Of a DNA stretch of 64,000 nucleotides, positions 47,133-59,688 are shown piece after piece. The stretch lies in the NCBI GenBank assembly GCA_049320885.1, contig JBMORA010000014.1:85612-149611 (forward strand), read 5' to 3'. The notes beneath the pieces were generated by a model that was not told where the DNA came from, ran no database searches, and saw only the letters and a list, made by a program, of their open reading frames with translations. Both the position numbers and the translations under genes were made by a program. The stretch is from Thermodesulfobacteriota bacterium. GTDB lineage: Bacteria > Desulfobacterota > Desulfobacteria > Desulfobacterales > SURF-7. Positions within the stretch are counted from its first letter, which is position 1; each line of letters opens with the position of its first letter.

Positions 47133-48269
47133 TCATTTGCTCTGCCACCACCGGAAAAGCCGGAAATCCTCCACCATCCGCGGCTCTTTTTTCAGAAAGG
47201 CCAGGGGGGGAACCACGTTCAGTTCCTTGATATCCCGCGGGGAAGAGGAGCGCGCCAGGGCGTTCAGGTTGGCGAGCATGGTGGCGGACATTCGTGCGCG
47301 CGTATCGGCATCCGCGGTGGCGCTGTGGGGCGTGAAAATAAAACGCAGCTCCGGTCTGTCCATCGCAATCCTGCGGAATTCTTCCAGCGTGGCAGCCGGC
47401 AGGGGTTCGTCCTCGTAAACATCCAACGCCAGATGGATGGCGATATCCCTGTTTTTCAAGAGCCGGATCAGGGCGGAAGTGTCGACGATCCCGCCCCTTG
47501 CGGTATTGACCAGCAGGGCGTGGGGCCGCATGAGCTGGAGCAGATGTTCGCCGACATAATGATGGGTGTTTTCATCCAGGGGGATGTGGATGGAAATGAT
47601 GTCGGCGCTCTTGAAGAGCTGTTCGACATCCTCGTAATAGGTCAGATTCGGATAGGTTTCCTCCATTTCAGGGCTTTGGAAAATATCGCTGTAGGCGATG
47701 TGGATGCCCCAGGGAGCCACCCGGCGCACCACTTCCCTTCCGATTTCACCGAGACCGAGGATGCCGTAGGTAAGGTTTTCGGTGTTCTTGCCGATATGGC
47801 GGTCGAGCTCCCATTTTTCACCGGGCGCCCATTGACCGTTCCAGACATGGTTGTTGAGGCCGACGATATTGCGCAGATTGGCGAGGATCAGCGAAACGGT
47901 GTAGTCGGCGATGGTGCCGGCAAGAACACCGGGTGTGTTGGTGACGATGACTCCCGGATGGAGATGGATGTGGTTCCAGCCGACATTGCTGGTGCTGACC
48001 GCCTTGACGCTGGGAATGGAAAGGATTTCCTCGGTGATCTGGTGTCCCAGGTGGCAGCCGATGAAATCAGCCTCCATTTGCGTAACCGTTCGAATGATTT
48101 CCTCCTCGGAAGGAAAGCGGCTTCCGGCCACGACCACCTCGGCGGCGGTATTGAGATTGCTCCAGGCTTTATTGATCATGTATTTATACTTCACCGAAAC
48201 CTTCGGGTTGTCGGCGATCTCCCGGAAGACGGGGGATGCCAGATACACTACGGGTGTTTTTCCGCCCAT
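47133..48269 (-). CDS. D-isomer-specific 2-hydroxyacid dehydrogenase (glyoxylate/hydroxypyruvate reductase-like)
   Basis: NTPGVL, GLGEIG, NTARGG, DVYEDEP, TPHSA. Confidence 0.9.
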   Translation of the reverse strand: MGGKTPVVYLASPVFREIADNPKVSVKYKYMINKAWSNLNTAAEVVVAGSRFPSEEEIIRTVTQMEADFIGCHLGHQITEEILSIPSVKAVSTSNVGWNHIHLHPGVIVTNTPGVLAGTIADYTVSLILANLRNIVGLNNHVWNGQWAPGEKWELDRHIGKNTENLTYGILGLGEIGREVVRRVAPWGIHIAYSDIFQSPEMEETYPNLTYYEDVEQLFKSADIISIHIPLDENTHHYVGEHLLQLMRPHALLVNTARGGIVDTSALIRLLKNRDIAIHLALDVYEDEPLPAATLEEFRRIAMDRPELRFIFTPHSATADADTRARMSATMLANLNALARSSSPRDIKELNVVPPLAFLKKEPRMVEDFRLFRWWQSK

Positions 48270-48287: not shown

Positions 48288-49739
48288 TTATTTTGGTTCA
48301 GGCCAGTTTTTGATGACCCGGTTGCGGGCGTCCATGATGGAGATGGATACGATGTGATCGCCGTCCAGGCGATGCGTCGCACAGCTGATTCAGGGGTCGT
48401 AGGCGCGCACCGCCATTTCGATCCGGTTCAGGATCCCCTCCGTTACGTTACCGTCATGAATCAAGGCCCGCGCCGCCTGCTTGACGCTCAGATTCATGGG
48501 CCCTAGATTGTGGGTGGTGCCGACAATCATGTTTGCGCGGGTGATCAGGCCGTTCCGGTCGGTGGAATAGTCATGGATCAGGGTTCCACGGGGGGCCTCC
48601 ACGCATCCGACCCCGCGGCCGGCGCCGGGTTCATAGGGTGCCCGGATATCGGGATCGGTGATGTCCGGATCACTCAGAATTTCAATGGCGCGTTCACCGG
48701 CGGCGACCCCCTCGATCAGCCGGGCGTAGTGATAGAGCAGCGTGGCCTGGGCCGGCCGGCCGAAGAGGGAACGGAATTCCTCCAGCTCGGCCTGGGCCTT
48801 CGGGGTGGCCATGCGATCGCAGACATTGATGCGCGCCAGGGTGTTGGAACGGTAGATTCCTTTCGGCTTATCCACATCCAGGTCGAAGCCCTCATTCCAG
48901 CAGCGGGCGTAGGGAAACTTGCCGTAAGAGTAAGGTTCCACATGCTCGCCCAGGTAGTCGGCATAGTCCCGGGCTTCGAAATCCGTATAGGTGCCATCGG
49001 GTTTCATCAGGCGCAGTTTGCCGTCATACAGATTGTGAGCGCCGTTCGCATCCACCGTGCCGATGAAACCGGTGGTGATGACCCCCAGGGTCTTGATGGT
49101 GTCCATGTACTTCGGAAAAACGTTTTTCTTGGCGAAGTCCAGGGAAAACATTGAAAATTCCAGAACCTGCTTCATTTTATCCAGAATTTCCCGGCGTTCT
49201 TCCTCCAGCATGGGCTTGGAAAATCCTCCGGGCACTCCGGCAACGGGGTGTATGGTTTTACGCGAAAACCGGTCCAGAATCATTTTGACCAGATATCGTG
49301 TCTTGATGACCTGCTGGGCCAGTTCCGGGTTCGCCTTGGCGATGCCGACCACGTTGCGCACGGAGTAATCGGCATCCGGGCCGATGACGAAATCGGGGGC
49401 GGCGAGAAAATAGAAGTTCAACAGCTTGTCTTCCACATGTGCGATGGACTGCATCAGTTCGCGCAACTTGTGACCGGCCGGAGGCGGCGTGACTCCGAAG
49501 CAGCTGTCCACGGCCTTGTTGGAGGCCAGATGGTGCATCCAGGGACAGATGCCGCAAATCCGGCAGACGATGTCCGGGAGTTCCTCGGCCGGTTTGCCTT
49601 CGACAAATTTTTCGAAACCCCGGAGGGACATGTAGTTCACCCGGGCATCCTGATAGTTGCCCGCGTCGTCCAGCCAGATGTTGATGGACGCATGCCCCTC
49701 GATACGGGTGATCGGTTGAATGGTGATGGCCTTGGTCAT
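48288..49739 (-). CDS. mvhA: [NiFeSe] hydrogenase large subunit, MvhA/VhuA type; Sec at UGA 48390-48392 (483 aa)
   Basis: RIEGH, L1 RICGIC; readthrough gives L2 RAYDP-U-ISCATH plus tail to TAA 48288-48290. Confidence 0.92.
48357..48373 (-). promoter_or_regulatory. SECIS hairpin of mvhA
   Basis: ATCGCC-TGGAC-GGCGAT after a 16-nt spacer from the UGA. Confidence 0.8.
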
Positions 49740-49740
49740 G

Positions 49741-50685
49741 TCAGCTCGATCTCCTTTCGCGGCTAACCGGTGATTTCAGCAAGCCATGGGCTCCTGAAAA
49801 ACGGAGCAGCAGGGGGTTGTTGGGAATGGATTTCATATCAATGCCGTTGGAGGCCAGGGCGTTCAGCATGTCCAGAAGTTGATTGCCCTCATGGCGCACC
49901 GGGCCGTAACATCCGCGACAGGGAACCCTGGCTGAAATACAACGCGGAGTGACGGCGTCGCCGCCGCATCCCGCGCGGGTAACCGGTCCCATGCACAGGA
50001 AGCCCTGTTCCAGCAGGCAGCGCATGTTTTCGAGGGGCTCACCCGGAGCGCCGTACTGGGGGGCCGTCAGGAAACGCCTGACTTTTTTCAAATCGCCCTT
50101 GCCCTGGCGCACGGTGGGACAAGTGTCGCATACGCTTTTGGTAGGCACCGCAAGGGGCTTTCCCTGCACGAGGGCGACCAGCGCGGAAAAGATATGATCC
50201 GGGTGGGGGGGGCAGCCGGGCAGATGGATGTCCACCTTGATTTTTTCATCCAGGGCGTAGCAGGCGTCGAGGAGCGGTGGAATGCCGTCGGACGGATATG
50301 CATCCGGCCGGTCGGTGGTTTCGGTGGAATAAACGCGTTCCATGATCTCGTCCACCGCATAGGTGTTGGCCAGGGAAGGGATGCCGCCGTGGGTGGCGCA
50401 GGTTCCCAGGGCGATGATGAGGCCGCATTTTTTGCGCATTTCCAGCGCCACTTCCAGATGCTCCTCATTGCGAATGCCGCCGCTGATGATCCCCACATCC
50501 GCCTCCGGCAGGGATAGATGTTGCTGGTCTCCGCGTTGCCCGTAATATTTGCTGTCCACCAGCGCAGGAAGGTGGACGATGTCCGCCACGGCCAGAATGT
50601 CGAGCAATCGCTCGCCGGTGTCGATGATGGAGATTTCGCATCCGGAGCATGAATTCAACCATTCACTTGAAACTCGGACTCCCAT
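49741..50685 (-). CDS. mvhG: F420-non-reducing hydrogenase small subunit MvhG
   Basis: CSGCEIS, GTCATHGG, PGCPP, CMGPVTRAGC, VPCRGC. Confidence 0.9.
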   Translation of the reverse strand: MGVRVSSEWLNSCSGCEISIIDTGERLLDILAVADIVHLPALVDSKYYGQRGDQQHLSLPEADVGIISGGIRNEEHLEVALEMRKKCGLIIALGTCATHGGIPSLANTYAVDEIMERVYSTETTDRPDAYPSDGIPPLLDACYALDEKIKVDIHLPGCPPHPDHIFSALVALVQGKPLAVPTKSVCDTCPTVRQGKGDLKKVRRFLTAPQYGAPGEPLENMRCLLEQGFLCMGPVTRAGCGGDAVTPRCISARVPCRGCYGPVRHEGNQLLDMLNALASNGIDMKSIPNNPLLLRFSGAHGLLKSPVSRERRSS

Positions 50686-50718
50686 GGTTGTTGCCTCCTG
50701 TTACCAATGAAGTATCGT

Positions 50719-51837
50719 TTATCCCTTTACCCGTACTCCCTTTTTGCCGAGTTTCCGTCTGGCCTGCTGGGCGTTCCGGCGCTTGCGGGCTGATGAAGTC
50801 CGGACCAGGGTCAAGGCCCGGGTGGCGAATTCGGCATTGTCTCTAGCGCTGTGTTCCTCGATGGCGCCCGCGCCCCGGGCATCGGCGAAAGCAGCTCTTC
50901 CCAGGGGCGAACGGGTGATGACGGTGGTCCAGCCTTCCTCGGCGCCGAGACCGCCGAAGGAAATGTCGGCGAATTCCGAGGAGTAGTCCGGACAGAAGCT
51001 GCAGGCGAAACGCCGGATTCCCAGCAATTCAGACATGGCGATATGCCGGATTTCGCCGTTTTTGAGATGCACCATCAAATCGTCTTTGATATTGATTTTG
51101 CGCACTTCATTCCAGTCAAACCCGCCGGAATTCGACAGGGCGCGGCGTTCGGTCTCCCCGAAAAGGAAGTTGCCCGAACAGAACAGACCGAGGCAGAATT
51201 TGATGTTTTCCGAGGGAACCAGGCCCAGGGTCTGCATGCGGCGCACGGATTTGATCTGGCAGGGAGTACCCACCAGGGCGACCCGCTTCAGTCCTTTCTT
51301 CATGACCGGATCAAATTCCTCAATGGTGGAAAACGTCTGGTACTGGTCGCTGAAATTTTTCATCCCATGGGAGGTGTCGAAAAAAAAGCCGGCGGCCTCC
51401 TTGATCTCCTCGGTGGAGGTAGCCAGGAAGGGCCGGCGCTGAAAGGACCCGGATTGTTTGGTGACGATGGCGCCGTCGATGCGGCCGCGCTCGAAAAGAT
51501 GCAAAAGGAGGGCCGTCACGACGCCCCCGTCGGTGGCGTTCTTGCGAACCGCCGCATCCCCGGAACGGGCCACGGTGGTTTCGATGATCCGGCCCATGGG
51601 CGCGGTCCAGCCTGCCCGCTCGATGGTTTCGGCTTCCAGTTCGTCGACTTCCGGGCAGATGGCATGGCAGAGGCCGCACTCGATGCATTTCTCGATTTCG
51701 CCGTAGCGCGGTTTGCCGTCTTTATCCAGGTCGAGGGCGCCGTAATTCACGGCGCTGCAGAAGGTGACGCAGCCGCCGCAACGGTGACACAGGCCCGGTT
51801 TCTGTACATCCTGAATCAGGTCGAAAAAGGTTTTCAT
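50719..51837 (-). CDS. FrhB/FdhB-like flavo-Fe-S protein with N-terminal ferredoxin
   Basis: CHRCGGC, CIECGLC, DGGVVTALL, VGTPCQ, GLFC. Confidence 0.85.
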   Translation of the reverse strand: MKTFFDLIQDVQKPGLCHRCGGCVTFCSAVNYGALDLDKDGKPRYGEIEKCIECGLCHAICPEVDELEAETIERAGWTAPMGRIIETTVARSGDAAVRKNATDGGVVTALLLHLFERGRIDGAIVTKQSGSFQRRPFLATSTEEIKEAAGFFFDTSHGMKNFSDQYQTFSTIEEFDPVMKKGLKRVALVGTPCQIKSVRRMQTLGLVPSENIKFCLGLFCSGNFLFGETERRALSNSGGFDWNEVRKINIKDDLMVHLKNGEIRHIAMSELLGIRRFACSFCPDYSSEFADISFGGLGAEEGWTTVITRSPLGRAAFADARGAGAIEEHSARDNAEFATRALTLVRTSSARKRRNAQQARRKLGKKGVRVKG

Positions 51838-51874
51838 ACCCGCTCCTTTTCGAAAATGTCCGCGCAAGCAGGGT

Positions 51875-53173
51875 TTACAGGCCGACCGTCATCAAATCCG
51901 GCCCGAGGTAAGCCCTTTCGTTTTCACCCAGGATCCCCATGGCAAGACAGATGATGGTCCACAGGTGAACCGTATGGTATTTACCGTTAAAGTGCTCGTT
52001 CAGATCATGAATCTGGGAGTGACAATTGTGGCAGGGCGCGATGCAATACTCCGCCCCGGTGGCCTCGATCTGGTCGAACTTGATTTTGCCGAAGGTTCGG
52101 CGGGACTCCGCATATCCTGCCTGCAAGGCCCCGCCGCCACCGCCACAGCAGTAGTTGTTGGAGCGGTTGGGGGTCATGTCCACGAAGTTTTCCTCGCCCA
52201 CCGTTTTCTTGATGACGAAGCGCAGATCCTCGGCATAGGCGTCGCCGTATGTCTTGCGCACCTGATTGCAGGGATCCTGGGCCGTGAATTTGACCTTCAG
52301 GTTCCGATTCCAGTCGGAGTCGACCCTCAGGCGGCCTTCGCGGATCCATTGAGCGTAGAGCTGCACGATGGTGGTGATTTCGAATTTGTGGGGGATGTTG
52401 AATTTTTTCAGTCCGGCCCGGACTGCAAAGAGTTCATGCCCTCACTCCGTGTTGACCCAGTATTTGCACCCCAGGTCGTCCACGGCCTTGGCCTTGATGC
52501 GTACGATACGCTCCCAGTTTTCATCGTCGGCCAGGAACATGCAGTAGTTTTCGGCGGCCCAGCCTTTGGTGGAGTAAGTCCAGTCCGCGCCCACGAAGTG
52601 CATGATCTTCCAGAGGGGCACCATCTCATCGGGCTCGGTGACCGGTTCCCGGGAGTTCTGGTTCAGAAAGAACTCGGCTCCGGCCTTGTTGATGGGCGCC
52701 GTCAGGTTTTCCCAGCCGGGCTGGCTGGAGCGGACCTCCTCGAGGACATCTTCCACCACCATGCGGAAATCGTCTTGCTTGGCGCCCATGGCGCTGCAAC
52801 CCTCGTCGAGGAGCGCCATATCGCAGGAGGAGCGGATTCCCTTGGGGCGGGTATCCCTGGGCCAGCTCTTGCGGGCGTGATAAACGAGCTGGGGGATGTC
52901 GATTTTCATCGGGCAGACATAAATGCAGCGCCAGCAGAGGGTGCAGTTCCAGACCCACTCGCTTTTCAAAATTTGTTCATCCAGGCCCATGACGGCCATG
53001 CGCAGGAACCTGCGGGGATCCATGTCCGCCAGGCCGGTGGCCGGGCAGCCGGAGGCGCAGGCGCCGCAGGTCAGGCAGGCGTTGAGATTCCCGCCGTCGG
53101 GCAGGAGCTGCATGACCTTATCCTTGAAGATGCTTTTGTTTTCTTTTCCGATTTTGACGGGTTGGACGGTCAT
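51875..53173 (-). CDS. HdrD/DsrK-like Fe-S/CCG-domain protein; Sec at UGA 52442-52444 (432 aa)
   Basis: Two CxxCxxCxxxCP motifs; NTE-U-GHE (ECGH equivalent) joins two ORFs in frame; CCGGGG, PCHNC. Confidence 0.88.
52409..52425 (-). promoter_or_regulatory. SECIS hairpin of the HdrD-like gene
   Basis: CAGTCC-GGGCC-GGACTG after a 16-nt spacer from the UGA. Confidence 0.8.
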
Positions 53174-53179
53174 GGTCCC

Positions 53180-53638
53180 TCACCTCCCTTCGGCTTCGGC
53201 ACGCACTTCCGGCGCGGCCGTTTTTCGGCGGCCCATGGGGTTGGGCCCCAGGGCGCGGATCTTTTCGGTGAAACGGGTGACGATTTCGGCGAATCTGGGC
53301 GCTTCGGCGGACGAGACCCATTCGACGGCAAAGCGTTCCGGGTCCACGCCCTGGATTTCAAGCACGATTTTGGCGGCTTCACTGCGGTTCAAGGCTTTGT
53401 GATTACCCTCCAGGTAATGACATTCGCCGAGATGTCAGCCCATAATGATGACGCCGTCGGCCCCGCGGTTGAAGGCCTCCAGCACGATATCGGGGTGGAC
53501 CATGCCGGAGCACATGACCCGCACGGCGCGCATGTTGGACGGGTATTGCAGCCTGCCGACACCCGCCAGATCCCCACCGGCATAGGCGCACCAGTTGCAG
53601 AGAAATCCCAGGATGACCGGTTCGAATTTTTCAGCCAT
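53180..53638 (-). CDS. mvhD: MvhD [2Fe-2S] subunit; Sec at UGA 53435-53437 (152 aa)
   Basis: FLCNWCAY, VMCSG, G-U-HLGECHY, EWVSSAE. Confidence 0.92.
53402..53418 (-). promoter_or_regulatory. SECIS hairpin of mvhD
   Basis: ATTACC-TGGAG-GGTAAT after a 16-nt spacer from the UGA. Confidence 0.8.
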
Positions 53639-53676
53639 GATAGCGTTCTCCTTCATTAGTGAATTATGCCCGTAAT

Positions 53677-56600
53677 TCAGGCGGCATCTTCCAGGGCCGC
53701 AATGACCTGGGCCCGCAATTGATCCATCGTGAACCCGTGGACATAAACCCCGCCCTTGGGGCAGGTGGCCGAGCATAGACCGCAGCCCTTGCACAGGGCT
53801 TTTTCAGTGGCGATCCGCGCGCGGGTCCGGCCGTCATCGGTCTGGTATTCCGTCAGGGCGATGGCATTGTACGGGCAGACATCCAGGCACAGGGCGCATC
53901 CGTCGCATTTGTCGGTGACAAAGGATTTGATGGCGTCCAGGGTCATTTCCGTCTGGCACAGAACCACCGCCGCCCTGGCTGCCGCCGCCTTGGCCTGGGC
54001 GATGGTTTCATTCATCGGTTTCGGGTAGTTGCAAAGACCCGCGACAAAGAGTCCGTCCACGGACATATCCACCGGACGCAGTTTCGGGTGGGCCTCGTTG
54101 AGAAAACCGTCTGCATTGGCGGCGCACTTATAGAGCTCCACCAGCTCGTGGGTCTCGTTCGCCTCCATGGCCGCGGCCAGCACCACGCGGTCGGCCGCGA
54201 TGCTCATCGGCATGCGCAGGATGGGATCATAAATGTCCACGGCAAGTTCATCGCCGTCCCGGCGGACCACCGGTTTCCCTTCGGTTTCGTAGCGGATAAA
54301 GATCACGCCCAGATCCCTGGCCTGGCGATAGAGATCCTCGCGCTCACCGTAGGTGCGGATGTCGCGGAAAAGGACGTAGATGTTCATCTGCGGATTCAAG
54401 CCCTTGAGCTGAATGGCGGATTTGATGGAGTGGGTGCAGCAGATACGGCTGCAGTAGGGCCGGCGTTCGTCCCGGGAGCCGACGCACTGGATGAACACCA
54501 GACTGGGGATTTTCTTGATTGCCGCGGGATTGTCGCGCAGCAAGGCGTCCAGTTCCAAATGGGTTATGACGCGTTCATCCTGGCCGAAGAGGTATTCCTC
54601 CGGGCGGGATTCCCGGCCGCCCACCGCCAGCACGGCAACGCCGTAGGAAATTTCGCTTTGCCCGCCGTTTACCCGGATGTCGCTGGTGAAATTTCCCACG
54701 GACCCCTTGGCGGAAGCGAGGGCGGCGTTTGTGAACACCTGGATGCCGGGATGGGTTTCCACCTTACGGATGAGGTCTTCCAGGAAGGGGCGGACGGCCA
54801 GCCCCTGGTCGGTGGTGTTTATTTTCCAGGCGTTGCCGCCGAGCCGGTCGGACTTTTCCAGCAGAACGGCTGGAAAATTCTGCTCGGCCAGGCTCAGGGC
54901 CGCCTGCATGCCGGCCACTCCGCCGCCGATGACCAGGGCCTTGGGGACGACGCTGATCCTGGTTCTCTCGATGGGCAGGCTCAGGGCGGCCTTGGCCGCC
55001 GCGATCCGCACCTGATCCTTGGCCTTGGCCGTGGCCATTTCCGGCTCCCGTTGGTGGACCCAGGCGTTTTGATTGCGGATATTGGCCATTTCCACCAGAT
55101 ACGGGTTCAGGCCCGTCTCCTGGAGGGTTTCCTGGAACAGGGACTCATGGGTGCGCGGCGTGCAGGCGGCGATGACGATCCGGTTCAGGGAGTTTTCCTG
55201 AATCTTTTTGGCCATCATTTCCTGGGTGTCGGCCGAGCAGCTGAAAAGGTTGTTTTCCACAAGCACCACATGGGGCAGGCTTCGGGCGTATTCGGCAACT
55301 TCATCCACGTTGATGATTCCCGCGATGTTGATGCCGCAGGAGCAGATGAACACGCCGATGCGGACTTCCTCGCCGGCGATGTCCCGCTCGGCGGGATAGG
55401 TTTTGCGGCTGGTCAGATCCCCCCGCGAGCGAATCAGGGCCGTGGCCGCCTCCAGGGCGGCGGTGGAGGCTTCGGTCACCGCCCGCGGAATCGCCTTGGG
55501 GGTCTGGAAGGCGCCGGCCACATAGATCCCCTGCCGGTTGGTGCAGGCCGGGGAGAAATCCGAGGTTTTGGCGAAACGATACTGGTTCAGATCCAGGCGG
55601 AACAAATCCGCCAGTTGCTTGCCGTCTGCCGTGGCCTCCAGCCCCACGGACAGCACCACCATGTCGAATTCGTCGATCCGGATGCTCCCGTCCTCGTCGG
55701 CATAGCGCATGGTTACGCCGCAGTTGTCCGCTCCCGCCTCGATGGAGTGGGGCCGGGCCCTGACAAAGCGGACTCCCTTGGCTTTGGCGCTTTCGTAAAA
55801 GCGATCGAAATCCTTGCCGTGACTGCGGATATCCATGTAGAAAATGCTTTGCCGCAGTCCGTCGCCTTGGACATGTTCGGCGGTGACCAGGGCCTCCTTG
55901 ATGGCGTACATGCAGCAGACGCTGGAGCAGTAACCGTTGTCGCAGCGGTTGGTGTTGCGTGAACCCACGCACTGGATCCAGGCGATGCTGCGGGGTTCCT
56001 TGTGATCGGAGGGCCGCACCAGGTGGCCCATGCAGGGGCCGCCGGAGGACAGCAGGCGCTCATATTCCATGCTGGTGACCACGTCCGGAATTTTGCCGTA
56101 CCCGTAAAAGTCGAATCCGGACGGATCGAAAGGTTTGAAGCCCGGCGACAGGATGACGGCGCCGACATTCAGATCGGTGATTTCCTCCCGGTCCTCAAAA
56201 TTGATGGCGGAAGTGGGGCAGAATTTCTCGCAGGCCTTGCATTTTCCCCGGGTGAGATAGATGCAGGTTTCACCATCGATGGCGTATTTCAAGGGCACGG
56301 CCTGGCCGTAGCGGATGTAGGCGGCGGTGCGCTGGTTCAACCCCATGTTGAATTCGTCTTTCACCTTGCGGGGGCATTTCTGGGCGCACAGCCCGCAGGC
56401 GATGCATTTTTCCATGTCGATATAGCGGGGATTTTTTTTGACCTTGACGACGAAGTTTCCGATTTCTCCCGATACAGCCACTACTTCCGACAGCGTCAGG
56501 AGGTTCACATTGGAATGCCGGCCGACCTCGACCAGTTTGGGGGAGATGATTCACATGGCGCAGTCGTTGGTCGGGAAGGTTTTGTCCAGCTGGGCCATGG

Positions 56601-57000
56601 CACCGCCGATGCCGGCGGTTTTTTCCACCAGGTGAACGAAATAGCCGGAGTTGGCCAGATCCAGCGTCGCCTGAATACCGGCGATGCCGCCACCCACTAC
56701 CAATACCGATCCGATGGGCTTTGCTGACATAGGCACCTCTTTGGGATTGTGGTGAAGAGTTGGGGCGATTGCGGAATCACCCATGGCAGGGGATGCTTCA
56801 CTGTCGGTGATCTCCCGCAGGATATTCTCGGAAATGCCGTGTTCCCGGCAAAAGTCCAGGAACAGGTGTTGATCGATCAGGTATTTCTTGCCCACCGTGG
56901 CGGAGGCCTTCAGTTTTCCGGACTGGATCCAGTTCGTCACGGTATTGCGATGCACGCCCAGTTTTCGGGCGAGTCTGCCGACACGGAATGCCATCTGCAT
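53677..57000 (-). CDS. hdrA: Large heterodisulfide reductase subunit A with N-terminal HTH; Sec at UGA 56551-56553; alternative start 56730
   Basis: [27 protein letters not shown], two IQCVGSR repeats, [10 protein letters not shown]-terminal ferredoxin; in-frame HTH at 57000-56731. Confidence 0.9.
56518..56535 (-). promoter_or_regulatory. SECIS hairpin of hdrA
   Basis: CTGGTCG-AGGT-CGGCCGG (with G-U pairs), loop at +23. Confidence 0.72.
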
Positions 57001-57023
57001 AGACAACTCCTTCCGCTCGTTGT

Positions 57024-57509
57024 TCAGCCGATCTCCCGCATGATCCGCGCGCACATGCGCGGCACGGCCGATTGGACCGGCTCTGAAAGTCCGACCGTGA
57101 CCTCGTCGGGCAGGTTTGGGGCCTGGACCACCAATACTTTCACCTCCACCGGACATTCTTCCTTCAGTTCCTTGAGCATGTTCGTGGTGGGAAACTGGTG
57201 CGGGGAGAAGTCGCCGATTTTTTCCGGCTGGATTTCCCCGATGTCGATTTCCCGGATATCGCCGGCGTTGTAGCCCGCGGCGGTGGCGGCGTCGATAATG
57301 ATGATTTTCCGCGGTTTCCGGGGTGACAGCAGAATGTCGAAGAGGAGATCCCGGATGGAAGTGCCGCAGTCGATGGCCGTAACGGAGTCCGGCAGTTGGT
57401 GGTGTTCTTCCAGATGCTGAATCACCGCCGGTCCAAAGCCGTCATCCCCGATCAGGGGATTGCCGCAACCCAGAACCAGACAATCATAGTCGTAAATCGG
57501 CTTCAGCAT
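57024..57509 (-). CDS. Hydrogenase maturation endopeptidase (HycI/FrhD type)
   Basis: [23 protein letters not shown]. Confidence 0.9.
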
Positions 57510-57613
57510 ATTGTGCCATTTATGCCAAGTCAATAAGGCTTGTCAAGAAAAATGTGCAATTTGTGCAAAGGGCTTGCAAGGGTGGGTCGGCGGATGGTTT
57601 TCGGTTTCACGGA

Positions 57614-57650
57614 CGCTGGCCGTTGCGCCTGGCAGGCGCCACGGCCAGCG
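57614..57650. terminator. Strong GC hairpin downstream of the caspase gene
   Basis: CGCTGGCCGT...ACGGCCAGCG arms with inner GCGCCT/AGGCGC. Confidence 0.45.
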
Positions 57651-57704
57651 CCGTTTCAAATCATAAACGGGGACAACCAGCCTTCTTTGGCTTGGTTCCC
57701 ATCG

Positions 57705-58559
57705 TTATGTGAACACTTTTTCCGCTACCGACCGTTTGGTTCCTTCGAGCTGGGGAACCTGGCTGTAGCCCATGCGTCGGATATCCGCACAGACGAGAGC
57801 GTCGAGCTTGCCGCGGGTGACGCCGATGCCGGCCCGCCGCAGGGCCTTGCAGAAGGCGTAGCTGAAGATGCCCCGGTGGACACCGCCGATGGCGGCCTCC
57901 GCTGAGGTTTGATAGTCACGGCAGCCGGCCCACAACACATGGTTTAATCCATCAACGATGACCAGTTCCCGTTCCCCCGGTTGCGGTTTCAGGATCCGCC
58001 GGGACGGAATGGTCGGATCCGAATCCAGGAAAAAGCCGTAATCCGGCGGCGGCTCGATATACCGGCAGGTCACCCGTTGCTCCTCGGGCGCGCCGGAGCG
58101 GGTGTCGAGTTCCCGGGTACCGGTGCCCGAATGGCAGGAATCCAGGATCACATCCAGGTTCACCCCGGCTGCCAGACCGCCGAAGATTTTCCGGAAATCA
58201 TCGTCCCGGATCATGCCGGCGGCGGCGTAATCATGCGGGCAGATGGTTTCATCCTTGGCGTCGATTTCATCGCCGCCGGTATCCGCGACCTGGGAGCCGT
58301 GGCCCGAGTAATGAAAAATCAGGGTGTCGCCTTTTTGGGCGCCCTTGATCAGCCATTTGAGACCTTCCAGGATGGCCGCCCGGGTGGCCCGGCGGTCCGT
58401 GAGGATGCGCATGGTCCCGGGTGTCGCCGGGACGATGCCGAGGGCGTTCAAGGTATGGGCGATATCTTTCACGTCATTGACACAACCTTGCAAATCCGGG
58501 CCGCCGGCGCCCACCGGCGAATAGTCGTTGATGCCCACCAATAGTGCTTTCTTCTTCAT
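57705..58559 (-). CDS. Caspase-family (metacaspase/C14) cysteine peptidase
   Basis: ALLVGINDY, YSGHG, DSCHSG dyad; SD AAGGAG. Confidence 0.92.
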   Translation of the reverse strand: MKKKALLVGINDYSPVGAGGPDLQGCVNDVKDIAHTLNALGIVPATPGTMRILTDRRATRAAILEGLKWLIKGAQKGDTLIFHYSGHGSQVADTGGDEIDAKDETICPHDYAAAGMIRDDDFRKIFGGLAAGVNLDVILDSCHSGTGTRELDTRSGAPEEQRVTCRYIEPPPDYGFFLDSDPTIPSRRILKPQPGERELVIVDGLNHVLWAGCRDYQTSAEAAIGGVHRGIFSYAFCKALRRAGIGVTRGKLDALVCADIRRMGYSQVPQLEGTKRSVAEKVFT

Positions 58560-58889
58560 GCGATTTCTCCTTTCCGATTGCGGGGTTGGTTTTGCTCGAT
58601 TGCCGACAGATGGTTGCCCAACGAGGAAAGAAAAATGCGCGGCGAACCCACGGGTCATCAGCGGGCTCCCGGTATGTTCCGGGGCGACCGTCGACTCCTG
58701 TTTGTTCCATGGCCCGAATCGCTCCAGGCCGGTGGCTGTTCGCCGGGTGGGAAGAAACTCAATGAATGCAATACGCGAAATGCAAATTCGTGGGGTAGGG
58801 TGTCGGTCTCGATTGTAATAAGGACGTAATGAACCCGTATGGCAAGAAACAAAAAAAATCAAGGGAAATTTCGCACGACCATGCCGATC

Positions 58890-59147
58890 TCACTCAACAG
58901 CTTTTATGTCAGATGGCAACTTCATTTTCTGTCTGGCGGCCCCGATCTCGGCCTGGATCTCGTCACAGGTAACGCGGGACTCGCAGGCCGGGCAGAGATA
59001 ACTGGTTCTGCCTGAAGGTGAAAGCCCACAGGCCACACATATTCCCTTATCCATGCATTCCTTTTCATCCCGGCTCCATTTCAGCGGTTTCAGGGATGGC
59101 GCCGGTTCTTTTCTTCCCGATAGTTGAAGTAATTTTACGTAGTTCAT
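58890..59147 (-). CDS. Small hypothetical zinc-finger protein (start uncertain)
   Basis: CVAC...CPAC. Confidence 0.5.
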   Translation of the reverse strand: MNYVKLLQLSGRKEPAPSLKPLKWSRDEKECMDKGICVACGLSPSGRTSYLCPACESRVTCDEIQAEIGAARQKMKLPSDIKAVE

Positions 59148-59688
59148 TATAATCACTTTCCCGCTTTCAGTCACGCCCGAGGCGGCTGAATGAAACATTC
59201 CGGATTCAGCCTTCCCCTTCCCGGCCACAAACCGTGACCTTGTTGATACTGAAATCTATGAAAACGTCTTTTCCGTGTCAAGAATATTGTGAATACAGAC
59301 CATTAAGAAAGTTCTGGGCCAAAATCGCTTCAGCCCGTTTTTTATTAATAAAGGACCATGGGAACTATGTTGATGAAGGTTGGGCCTTACAGCAGATCAT
59401 GAGCTAAAACCACGCCCAGCAAGGGATCGAAGCCGCTCGCGCGGTTTATCCCGGAAACTGCGCTCTGACATTTTTGATTACATCCGATAGTAACTTTTTT
59501 CTTGATATGCCGTTGTCTTTCTTTTATCATTGAAACCAATTAAAATCAAAAATTGCCCTTCTTGCATAAACAATCGATTGCAAAATCGTCAACTGTACCT
59601 CCCTTTATTCAATTATGTACAGAATTATTTTAAGAATAGGTTCCAATTAGCTGCTTTTATACTATCCTTAACTTATGGAGGTTGATAC

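Follow-up and report, generated by a model that had tools for sequence, protein, structure and literature searches.

Why should a DNA-binding domain be built into the front of a redox enzyme? The question is raised by a stretch of 64,000 nucleotides (nt) from a Thermodesulfobacteriota bacterium of the order Desulfobacterales (GenBank assembly GCA_049320885.1, contig JBMORA010000014.1, positions 85,612 to 149,611 of the forward strand). We call this whole stretch the window and count all positions within it, unless a contig of the same or another genome is named. On its minus strand, as part of a hydrogenase operon, lies a gene for a selenocysteine (Sec)-containing HdrA protein which is extended at its N-terminus by 90 residues that carry a winged helix-turn-helix (HTH) domain. 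In sulfate reducers, syntrophs and methanogens, energy metabolism depends centrally on flavin-based electron bifurcation by Hdr-type complexes; to our knowledge, the control of the many paralogous operons that encode them is poorly understood. An earlier note on this DNA had suggested that the fusion could be a redox-sensing autoregulator and perhaps a selenium (Se)-sensing switch. Here we propose, with a probability of roughly 0.6, that HTH-HdrA is an enzyme-tethered autoregulator of its own FrhD-HdrA-MvhD-HdrD-FrhB-NiFeSe hydrogenase operon. We arrive at this reading from the frame itself, its conservation, its starts and its Sec codon, and finally from a set of repeats at the operon promoter.

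One frame, two domains

The long frame (57000-53677) begins at ATG 57000-56998, which is preceded by the Shine-Dalgarno (SD) sequence GGAAGGAG (57014-57007) with a spacer of 6 nt, and it stays open to the stop codon at 53679-53677 except for a single in-frame TGA at 56553-56551 (..TNDCAM-U-IISPK..). The first 60 residues (57000-56821) are the winged HTH domain: residues 10-50 match Pfam HTH_17 (PF12728) with 34.8 bits for a cut-off of 27, and residues 7-46 match the TIGR01764 'excise' model with 32 bits for a cut-off of 28.8. A linker follows (residues 61-90, 56820-56731) that is hypervariable, predicted to be disordered and ends in ..KEVPM. At its end an internal SD-like GAGGTG (56739-56734) precedes ATG 56730-56728, the canonical HdrA start, which is Met91 of the long form. 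Product lengths are 1107 amino acids (aa) from ATG 57000, 1017 aa from ATG 56730 and 149 aa when ATG 57000 is read only to the UGA. These are the lengths that the earlier note had given, and its description of a 90-aa extension running without a stop into HdrA is borne out by the sequence and by the domain models.

The HdrA part (56730-53677, 1017 aa) is a double, BamE-like HdrA with its Sec at residue 60, which is residue 150 of the long form. Pyr_redox_2, FAD and Fer4 Pfam matches recur in two modules, giving a FAD/TrxR-like protein with ferredoxin inserts. It scores 946 bits, in three stretches, with the HdrA2 model NF040770 (cut-off 1100) and 703 bits with NF041778 (cut-off 1400), under the cut-off in both cases, and the model alignments start only at profile position ~139-144, so that the archaeal N-terminal domain is absent. 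By these profiles the protein is HdrA-like, but it is not the archaeal equivalog. The Cys/Sec site ..DC(A/S)M(C/U).. is present as CAM-U and is kept in relatives.

Could such a frame result from a stop codon lost during assembly, a check that the earlier note had asked for? Contigs from two sequencing runs cross the junction without a gap. A 463-nt contig of run X2, which belongs to a study other than that of run X1, spans 56552-57014 with three substitutions and no gaps; two of these are adjacent (56867/56868) and change His45 to Thr without creating a stop. A 7036-nt contig of run X1, possibly the source sample, is identical over 56557-57700. The fusion is not an assembly error.

The fusion is conserved across genomes

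Used as the sole query (75 aa, E <= 1e-5) against 401 genomes of the order, the HTH turned up in 37 of them and in 26 of 174 genera. The set of 33 order loci used below consists of 27 loci from this search, five from an additional search and the window's own; weaker HTH matches (in G107, G024, G121, G350, G156 and G270, and a second match in G214) stand outside it. In 32 of the 33, the HTH is in frame with HdrA and no stop precedes the Sec codon, and Pfam PF12728 was found in 28 of 28 relatives' HTH. A species-wide scan, in which each of 185,579 species was represented by one genome, gave 387 loci encoding a relative, and the best 80 of these were classified: 79 are fused and one is split. By partner, the best 80 comprise 47 fusions to a Sec-HdrA, 14 to a Cys-HdrA, one to an HdrA of unclear type and 17 to an HdrD-like protein, together with the split locus (G020). 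The Cys-HdrA loci carry CASC, and records labelled Desulfobacula or Desulfotignum are among them. Cultured carriers in the scan include Desulfosarcina widdelii PP31, Desulfocicer vacuolatum DSM 3385, Desulfamplus magnetovallimortis and, with the HdrD type, Desulforhabdus sp. TSK. The same in-frame arrangement that the earlier note had proposed to look for in other genomes is thus the rule in both sets. In fact, the HTH is never free-standing in either: it is joined to HdrA in 32 order loci and to FrhD only in one, and to HdrA or HdrD in 79 scan loci and to FrhD only in one.

The domain also extends beyond the order. In a phylum sample the HTH occurs in 33 of 401 genomes, 29 of which lie outside the order; loci were fetched for nine of these 29 matches and seven were classified, L051 and L055 being left unclassified. 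This extra-order set includes a Cys-type HTH-HdrA without internal Met (genome G600, locus L049) and several HTH-HdrD fusions, some with Sec. The Sec/Cys site of HTH-HdrD fusions lies ~300 residues downstream.

A stop between the HTH and HdrA, named by the earlier note as an observation that would speak against the fusion, is seen among the 33 order loci in G020 (L022) only. There a stop follows the HTH, and ~25 stop-containing codons separate it from the HdrA ATG. Lacking a start codon, this HTH continues the reading frame of the FrhD protease upstream, to whose C-terminus it is joined. Protease, HTH and HdrA form a single open frame in G108 (L031) and G200 (L027), and in G108, too, the HTH is without its own start codon. 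Separately, the HdrA copy of L020 (G082) has NDWAM-U at the Sec site and, within 460 codons, another four TGAs in frame; a frameshift or low sequence quality is the probable cause.

Selection on the domain and two possible translation starts

Is the HTH maintained as a protein domain in this frame? Averaged over pairs of 28 HTH sequences, the difference per site is 0.325 at the first codon position, 0.258 at the second and 0.584 at the third, which is purifying selection in the fusion frame. Alignments A1 and A3-A5 were made without L004, L018 and some near-duplicates, and A3 also without L020, which has several extra TGAs. The linker behaves in another way: compared with the same-genus locus L002 it shows 8, 7 and 9 differences by codon position, that is, no coding bias. 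The distance from the HTH motif to the GGG falls into nine length classes of 85-101 codons, and all of them are in frame. In an AlphaFold2 model of residues 1-420, the predicted local distance difference test (pLDDT) score is 81-90 in the HTH and below 50 in residues 69-92, which suggests a folded domain on a disordered tether of ~30 residues.

Both starts are common in the order. Of the 33 loci, 31 have an HTH start codon (with an SD core in 25) and 31 the internal ATG (with a GAGG, GGAG or AGGA core in 27). The sole conserved piece of the linker is '(K/R/S)EVxM', and its retention, when the remainder of the linker varies freely, speaks for use of the internal start. The second SD-like site that the earlier note had seen before ATG 56730 is therefore real as a sequence feature and conserved. 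On the other hand, the internal ATG is absent in G338 and G170 and, in the scan, from eight of the 47 Sec-type and all 14 Cys-type loci. In G338, G170, L049 and the 14 Cys-type loci, then, HdrA can start only at the HTH and the fusion is obligatory. The proposal of two isoforms thus holds in part: they are likely in this genome, judging from the conserved internal SD and ATG, but they are not universal, and in lineages that have no internal start the long form alone would suffice. In the Cys-type clade (L079, L093, L105, L115, L134 and others), the linkers are long (up to ~70 aa), rich in Lys, Glu and Gln and without an internal ATG, and a protease gene is often missing upstream.

These data bear on the simplest alternative, that the fusion is a neutral accident in which a small regulator gene lost its stop codon, so that all HdrA comes from the internal start and the long form, rarely made, has no function. 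An internal start kept in almost all order loci, the split state of G020 and a linker that evolves without codon bias are what this would predict. However, an accident would hardly preserve the frame over nine linker lengths, in 32 of 33 order and 79 of 80 scan loci and in several orders, and the lineages that have no internal start must make the fusion. We regard the accident as extremely unlikely, and the 90-aa extension as probably a real, translated N-terminal module of HdrA.

The selenocysteine codon

A different role for the fusion might lie in its UGA, which is found 59 codons downstream of the point where HdrA starts. Each of the 33 order loci has TGA here; an aligned Cys stands at the site in L012, in L049 and in 14 of the 80 scan loci. 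The genome carries selB (TIGR00475) on contig C27, with 371.7 bits for a cut-off of 242. A second selB-like match, at C1:315865-316947, reaches 269 bits over model positions 3-345 only and lies ~2 kb from HdrA paralogues at C1:313375 and C1:309812. Downstream of the HdrA UGA, a hairpin of seven pairs resembling a selenocysteine insertion sequence lies at 56535-56518 (+19 to +36). In 25 sequences it shows wobble-compatible changes only, with compensatory changes in 0 of 7 pairs. As the coding sequence around it is itself conserved, the hairpin is a tentative candidate.

Bacterial decoding of Sec is expected to allow some termination at UGA. The 149-aa product of such termination might then be a working regulator that reports Se supply to the operon, as the earlier note had imagined. 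The UGA is kept in every order locus and in 47 of the 80 scan loci, and four genes of the operon (those for HdrA, MvhD, the HdrD-like protein and the NiFeSe large subunit; 48288-56553) have a UGA in frame at the equivalent of a Cys. Moreover, public gene calls end at the Sec UGA: more than 120 clusters of 148-150 aa, called 'excisionase family DNA binding protein' or left unnamed, carry both PF12728 and FAD-binding Pfam matches. We had also entertained the idea that every HTH-HdrA fusion has Sec, and we dropped it since full-length Cys-type fusions exist. It is these relatives that contradict a selenium switch as the reason for the fusion: the HTH is found on Cys-HdrA with neither UGA nor internal start (L049 and 14 of 80), on HdrD-like proteins (17 of 80) whose Sec/Cys site is far away, and on FrhD with an ordinary stop in G020, so that the fusion is independent of a nearby UGA. 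A selenium switch as its primary function therefore seems to us quite improbable; as an extra layer within the Sec clade it is possible.

A fold like that of DNA-binding proteins

If the HTH is a module in its own right, what does it bind? The AlphaFold2 model of the domain (pLDDT 91.3) has the order β-α-α-β-β-α, with strands at residues 2-4, 31-33 and 39-41 and helices at 6-13, 17-26 and 43-52. Its top Foldseek matches are BldC-DNA complexes (6ama and 6amk; TMq 0.63-0.64, TMt 0.67-0.71, probability 0.99-1.00, E 0.02-0.09), followed by RacA, MerR-type regulators and the Pukovnik Xis, and a profile search of PDB sequences returns the same set of BldC, RacA, MerR-type proteins and Xis. The invariant residues of the family, H16, R17, N18, T19, N22, W23 and Y39, fall in the recognition helix and the wing.

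Candidate operators at the operon promoter

The first gene of the operon, for an FrhD-like hydrogenase maturation protease, starts at 57509, and two operator-like arrays lie just upstream of it on the same strand. Array 1 (57568-57551) consists of the tandem 9-nt repeats TTGCACAAA and TTGCACATT just 5' of a -35-like TTGACA hexamer (57546-57541); array 2 (57527-57510) consists of TGGCATAAA and TGGCACAAT and ends directly at the protease start codon. An A/T-rich CATAAAT (57524-57518), read by eye like the hexamer, follows TTGACA at 16-17 nt, and we infer that this pair is the operon promoter. The repeats lie inside 57510-57610, the stretch that the earlier note had put forward for DNA binding, which adds support to the autoregulator idea. 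A sigma-54 promoter in the window (TGGCAC-N-TGCT, 57517-57504) was considered by eye and rejected, its spacing being 2 nt too short; in L007, L022, L024 and L032, also by eye, a well-spaced sigma-54-like TGGCAY-N5-TTGCT overlaps or adjoins the repeats.

Almost every order locus has tandem direct repeats such as TTGCACAA, TGGCACAA or TCGCATAA 5' of the protease gene. An FrhD-type gene stands immediately 5' of the HTH in at least 29 of the 33 loci; in L017, L020, L023 and L030 the regular expression used found no protease motif, and these four are outside the motif count, which took in the 160 nt before the operon at each of 29 loci. There, we counted 75 copies of the core NGCA[CT]A[AT] in sense and 16 in antisense orientation; 500 shuffles gave a mean of 12.4 (standard deviation 3.5, maximum 24). 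Of 47 pairs of neighbouring cores, 23 have a spacing of exactly 9 nt. The consensus of the unit is TKGCAYAAW (45 units from 16 loci), with positions 3-5 and 7 fixed, and position 8 limited to A or T, by the search pattern.

Are these repeats a property of the HTH or merely of hydrogenase operons? Five HdrA loci lacking the HTH have one or two cores per 1500 nt and no array. Among FrhD-protease loci (compared without L140), the seven with the HTH have 2-4 sense cores upstream, whereas the eight without it, four of which are protease-HdrA operons, have 0-1 cores and no tandem. The array is present at all seven classified extra-order loci, both HTH-HdrD and Cys-type HTH-HdrA, and most of these arrays lie directly 3' of a TTGACA-17-TAxxxT-like pair (by eye). 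In the best 80 loci, an upstream sense tandem occurs in 37 of 47 Sec-HdrA and eight of 17 HdrD loci, and no tandem occurs in any of the 80 downstream coding stretches. As an association, the repeats thus track the presence of the HTH and not the type of operon.

The sites are also few. The window's own 5.6-Mb genome contains three A/T-spaced dimers in all, and two of them are those of this promoter. The third, at C22:3306 (GGCACAATATGCATA), lies ~60 nt 5' of a 341-aa transposase-like open reading frame (ORF), and we treat it as chance. In four of five other HTH-bearing genomes, one of the 1-4 genome-wide matches is located 530-700 nt 5' of the HTH; a tandem match at C2:396425 of G259 sits within a coding region and was likewise taken as chance. 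The fifth, G338 (L044, C2:2473500-2479500), has a triple array GCACAATATGCACAAATTGCACA at nt 1968-1990 of the locus, ~280 nt 5' of an operon for the small subunit of a NiFe hydrogenase with a Tat signal, the large subunit and a protease. This operon, for a periplasmic hydrogenase, may also belong to the HTH regulon in that genome.

Sites so few and local, and RacA among the nearest folds, could also mean that the HTH binds DNA only to place the enzyme at the nucleoid or a promoter, as RacA anchors the chromosome, and not to regulate. The confinement of the sites to the operon's own promoter and, in G338, additionally to a second hydrogenase operon is instead the pattern of a local transcription factor, and we consider placement very unlikely.

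Another possible function of the same fold would be protein docking. Here the HTH would clip HdrA to a hydrogenase or Hdr subunit or to FrhD, and some other factor would bind the repeats. There is a precedent: in the class II benzoyl-CoA reductase, the winged HTH of the MvhD-like subunit BamF is described as contacting BamI (10.64898/2026.04.10.717634). The window HdrA is of the same fused-dimer kind as BamE, and the HTH always sits between frhD and an hdr gene. Yet the HTH is carried by three different proteins, at the N-terminus of HdrA, the N-terminus of HdrD and the C-terminus of FrhD, through hypervariable disordered linkers, and three partners on loose tethers are easier to understand if the domain swings freely to DNA than if it occupies a fixed interface; they would fit a module whose mere presence is enough. 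Docking is also at odds with the location of the invariant residues, in the recognition helix, and with repeats that are specific to the operon and follow the HTH, and we hold it to be unlikely.

Several observations weigh against autoregulation by the tethered HTH. The structural E-values are weak, the best being 0.022 and none <= 0.001, and the NCBIfam BldC model NF033787 gives 16.8 bits for a cut-off of 77: by sequence the HTH is not a BldC-family member. The BamF example shows that the winged HTH of a related Hdr-type complex can serve to dock a protein and not DNA (10.64898/2026.04.10.717634). At the promoter, a consensus scan returned a weaker TTGACT-17-TATGCT (57533-57505) instead of TTGACA/CATAAAT, and some TGGCAY cores in relatives coincide, by eye, with sigma-54-like -24 elements, so that a part of the repeat signal may be promoter, not operator. 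The promoter of G338's own HTH operon carries one core only. By the search pattern, no tandem was found in 10 of 47 Sec-type and nine of 17 HdrD-type loci, and the Cys-type loci have a sense tandem in 0 of 14 and an antisense one in 7 of 14. Finally, the repeat counts come from related, non-independent genomes and from a regular expression that was derived from the same loci. As a side observation, the antisense repeats of the Cys-type loci lie 250-300 nt upstream.

A possible mechanism

To explain these results we propose that the tethered, BldC/Xis-like HTH would bind the tandem TKGCAYAAW repeats (2+2 copies) at the promoter of its own operon, probably head-to-tail, as in BldC. Two products would be made here, the long form of 1107 aa from ATG 57000 and the short HdrA of 1017 aa from ATG 56730, and only the former would carry the DNA-binding domain. 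Regulation would probably be repression, because the repeats flank or overlap the core promoter. The analysis shows the fusion and its conservation, selection on the HTH and the co-occurrence of HTH and repeats; from these we infer that the HTH occupies the repeats, in which direction it regulates, that both starts are used and which signal (assembly, redox or Se), if any, modulates binding.

In this scheme HTH-HdrA would act as a 'trigger enzyme' in the manner of PutA. PutA, BirA and NadR are trigger enzymes, and PutA is a flavoenzyme with a DNA-binding domain of its own. Enzyme and predicted DNA-binding domain occur in one open frame in the window as they do in nearly all order and scan loci. 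The likeness to PutA thus includes a flavoenzyme with its own DNA-binding domain and a predicted action on the promoter of its own operon. The domain of PutA is a ribbon-helix-helix and its redox-dependent switch is proven, whereas here DNA binding and switch are predictions.

What might HdrA tell the promoter? One option, which we rate as a speculative and rather doubtful extension of autoregulation, is that HdrA, the flavoprotein at the core of electron bifurcation in the hydrogenase/heterodisulfide-reductase complex, is a state-sensing repressor of its own operon. Its HTH would reach the repeats only while the protein is incomplete: not built into its complex, in a wrong state of reduction or, in the Sec clade, terminated at the UGA for want of Se. 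If this were true, transcription would respond directly to the supply of cofactor and of Se and to the assembly of the complex, and a direct route would lead from selenium to hydrogenase gene expression in sulfate reducers.

The operon and its neighbours

The operon presumed to be under this control is encoded on the minus strand throughout. The FrhD-like protease (57509-57024, 161 aa from ATG 57509) scores 75.4 bits with PF01750 HycI, 128 bits with TIGR00072 and 110 bits with TIGR00130 frhD, the last under its cut-off of 135. HTH-HdrA is followed by an MvhD/FlpD-like subunit (53656-53183; PF02662, 169 bits) with an in-frame UGA (..IIMG-U-HLGECHY..), and by an HdrD-like protein (53173-51875) that combines an HdrC-type di-cluster with a CCG domain, also with an in-frame UGA (..NTE-U-GHELF..). 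The latter is homologous to the HTH fusion partner of other orders. Next come an FrhB/FdhB-like subunit (51837-50719; PF04432, 128.7 bits; PF04422, 67 bits), the [NiFe] hydrogenase small subunit (50685-49741; PF01058, 107.5 bits) and the [NiFeSe] hydrogenase large subunit (49739-48288; PF00374, 111.9 bits), whose UGA lies in the C-terminal DP-U-ISCATH motif.

A D-2-hydroxyacid dehydrogenase gene (47133-48269, minus strand; PF02826, 152 bits) lies 3' of the hydrogenase large subunit. The 5' neighbour (57705-59228, minus strand) encodes a caspase-like peptidase C14 protein (PF00656, 106 bits), of which the 112-aa and 385-aa ORFs are joined only by reading through a TGA near 58865. At 57600-57660 (minus strand), before the operon promoter is reached from the peptidase gene, GGCGCTGGCCGT...ACGGCCAGCGTCC form an inverted repeat that is rich in GC and may be a terminator or a repeat element.

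A fusion hidden in gene calls

How could such an arrangement be overlooked? Since public gene calls stop at the Sec UGA, the fusion is hidden in them and hundreds of genomes are mis-annotated. In agreement with the earlier note, which knew of no description of the fusion, none was found in the literature searched (supplements and subscription journals lay outside its scope). The genome paper of Desulfobacterium autotrophicum HRM2 (PMC2702500) contains an Hdr domain analysis with no mention of an HTH. The tandem 9-nt repeats that co-occur at promoters with the HTH across orders also appear to be new. Together, an HTH built into HdrA, or into HdrD in other orders, and a predicted operator provide a concrete hypothesis on the control of Hdr operons. 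Should the tether indeed couple DNA binding to the assembly, redox or Se state of the enzyme, HTH-HdrA would be a new kind of trigger enzyme.

Comparison with known systems

Among DNA-binding proteins, the best PDB sequence match is the mycobacteriophage Pukovnik Xis (4J2N, E 0.001), which shares the HTH_17/TIGR01764 family with the window HTH. Unlike excisionases, however, the window HTH has no integrase or mobile-element context and is found inside a conserved energy-metabolism operon. The best structural match is BldC of Streptomyces (6AMA, 6AMK), a small MerR-like winged HTH protein without a coiled-coil dimerisation region. BldC is described as binding tandem direct repeats in head-to-tail order; their unit, AATTXXXX(C), measures 9 bp (PMC5859096), the same period as that of the 9-nt repeats of the window. 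The differences are in the setting: BldC is free-standing, with 68 residues, a wide regulon and an AATT-type repeat, whereas the window HTH is tied to a redox enzyme, goes with the repeat TKGCAYAAW and has local candidate sites.

Among Hdr systems, a dedicated regulator of hdrBCA, HdrR, is reported from Methanosarcina barkeri (PMC11218639); it is seemingly a separate archaeal protein and not a domain of an Hdr subunit. The Bam complex resembles the window more closely in its parts, since BamE is described as a fused HdrA dimer, with Sec in some relatives, in a complex that has an MvhD-type adaptor and a winged HTH (10.64898/2026.04.10.717634). In that system the HTH is on the MvhD-like BamF and contacts protein, while in the window it is on HdrA, at the end of a disordered tether, and is accompanied by promoter repeats. 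MvhAGD-HdrABC of methanogens, finally, has HdrA, MvhD and a [NiFe(Se)] hydrogenase in one operon, as does the window. Compared with it, the window encodes a fused HdrD-like protein in place of HdrB and HdrC, an FrhB-like subunit is present, and HdrA itself is doubled, lacks the archaeal N-terminal domain and has an HTH in front.

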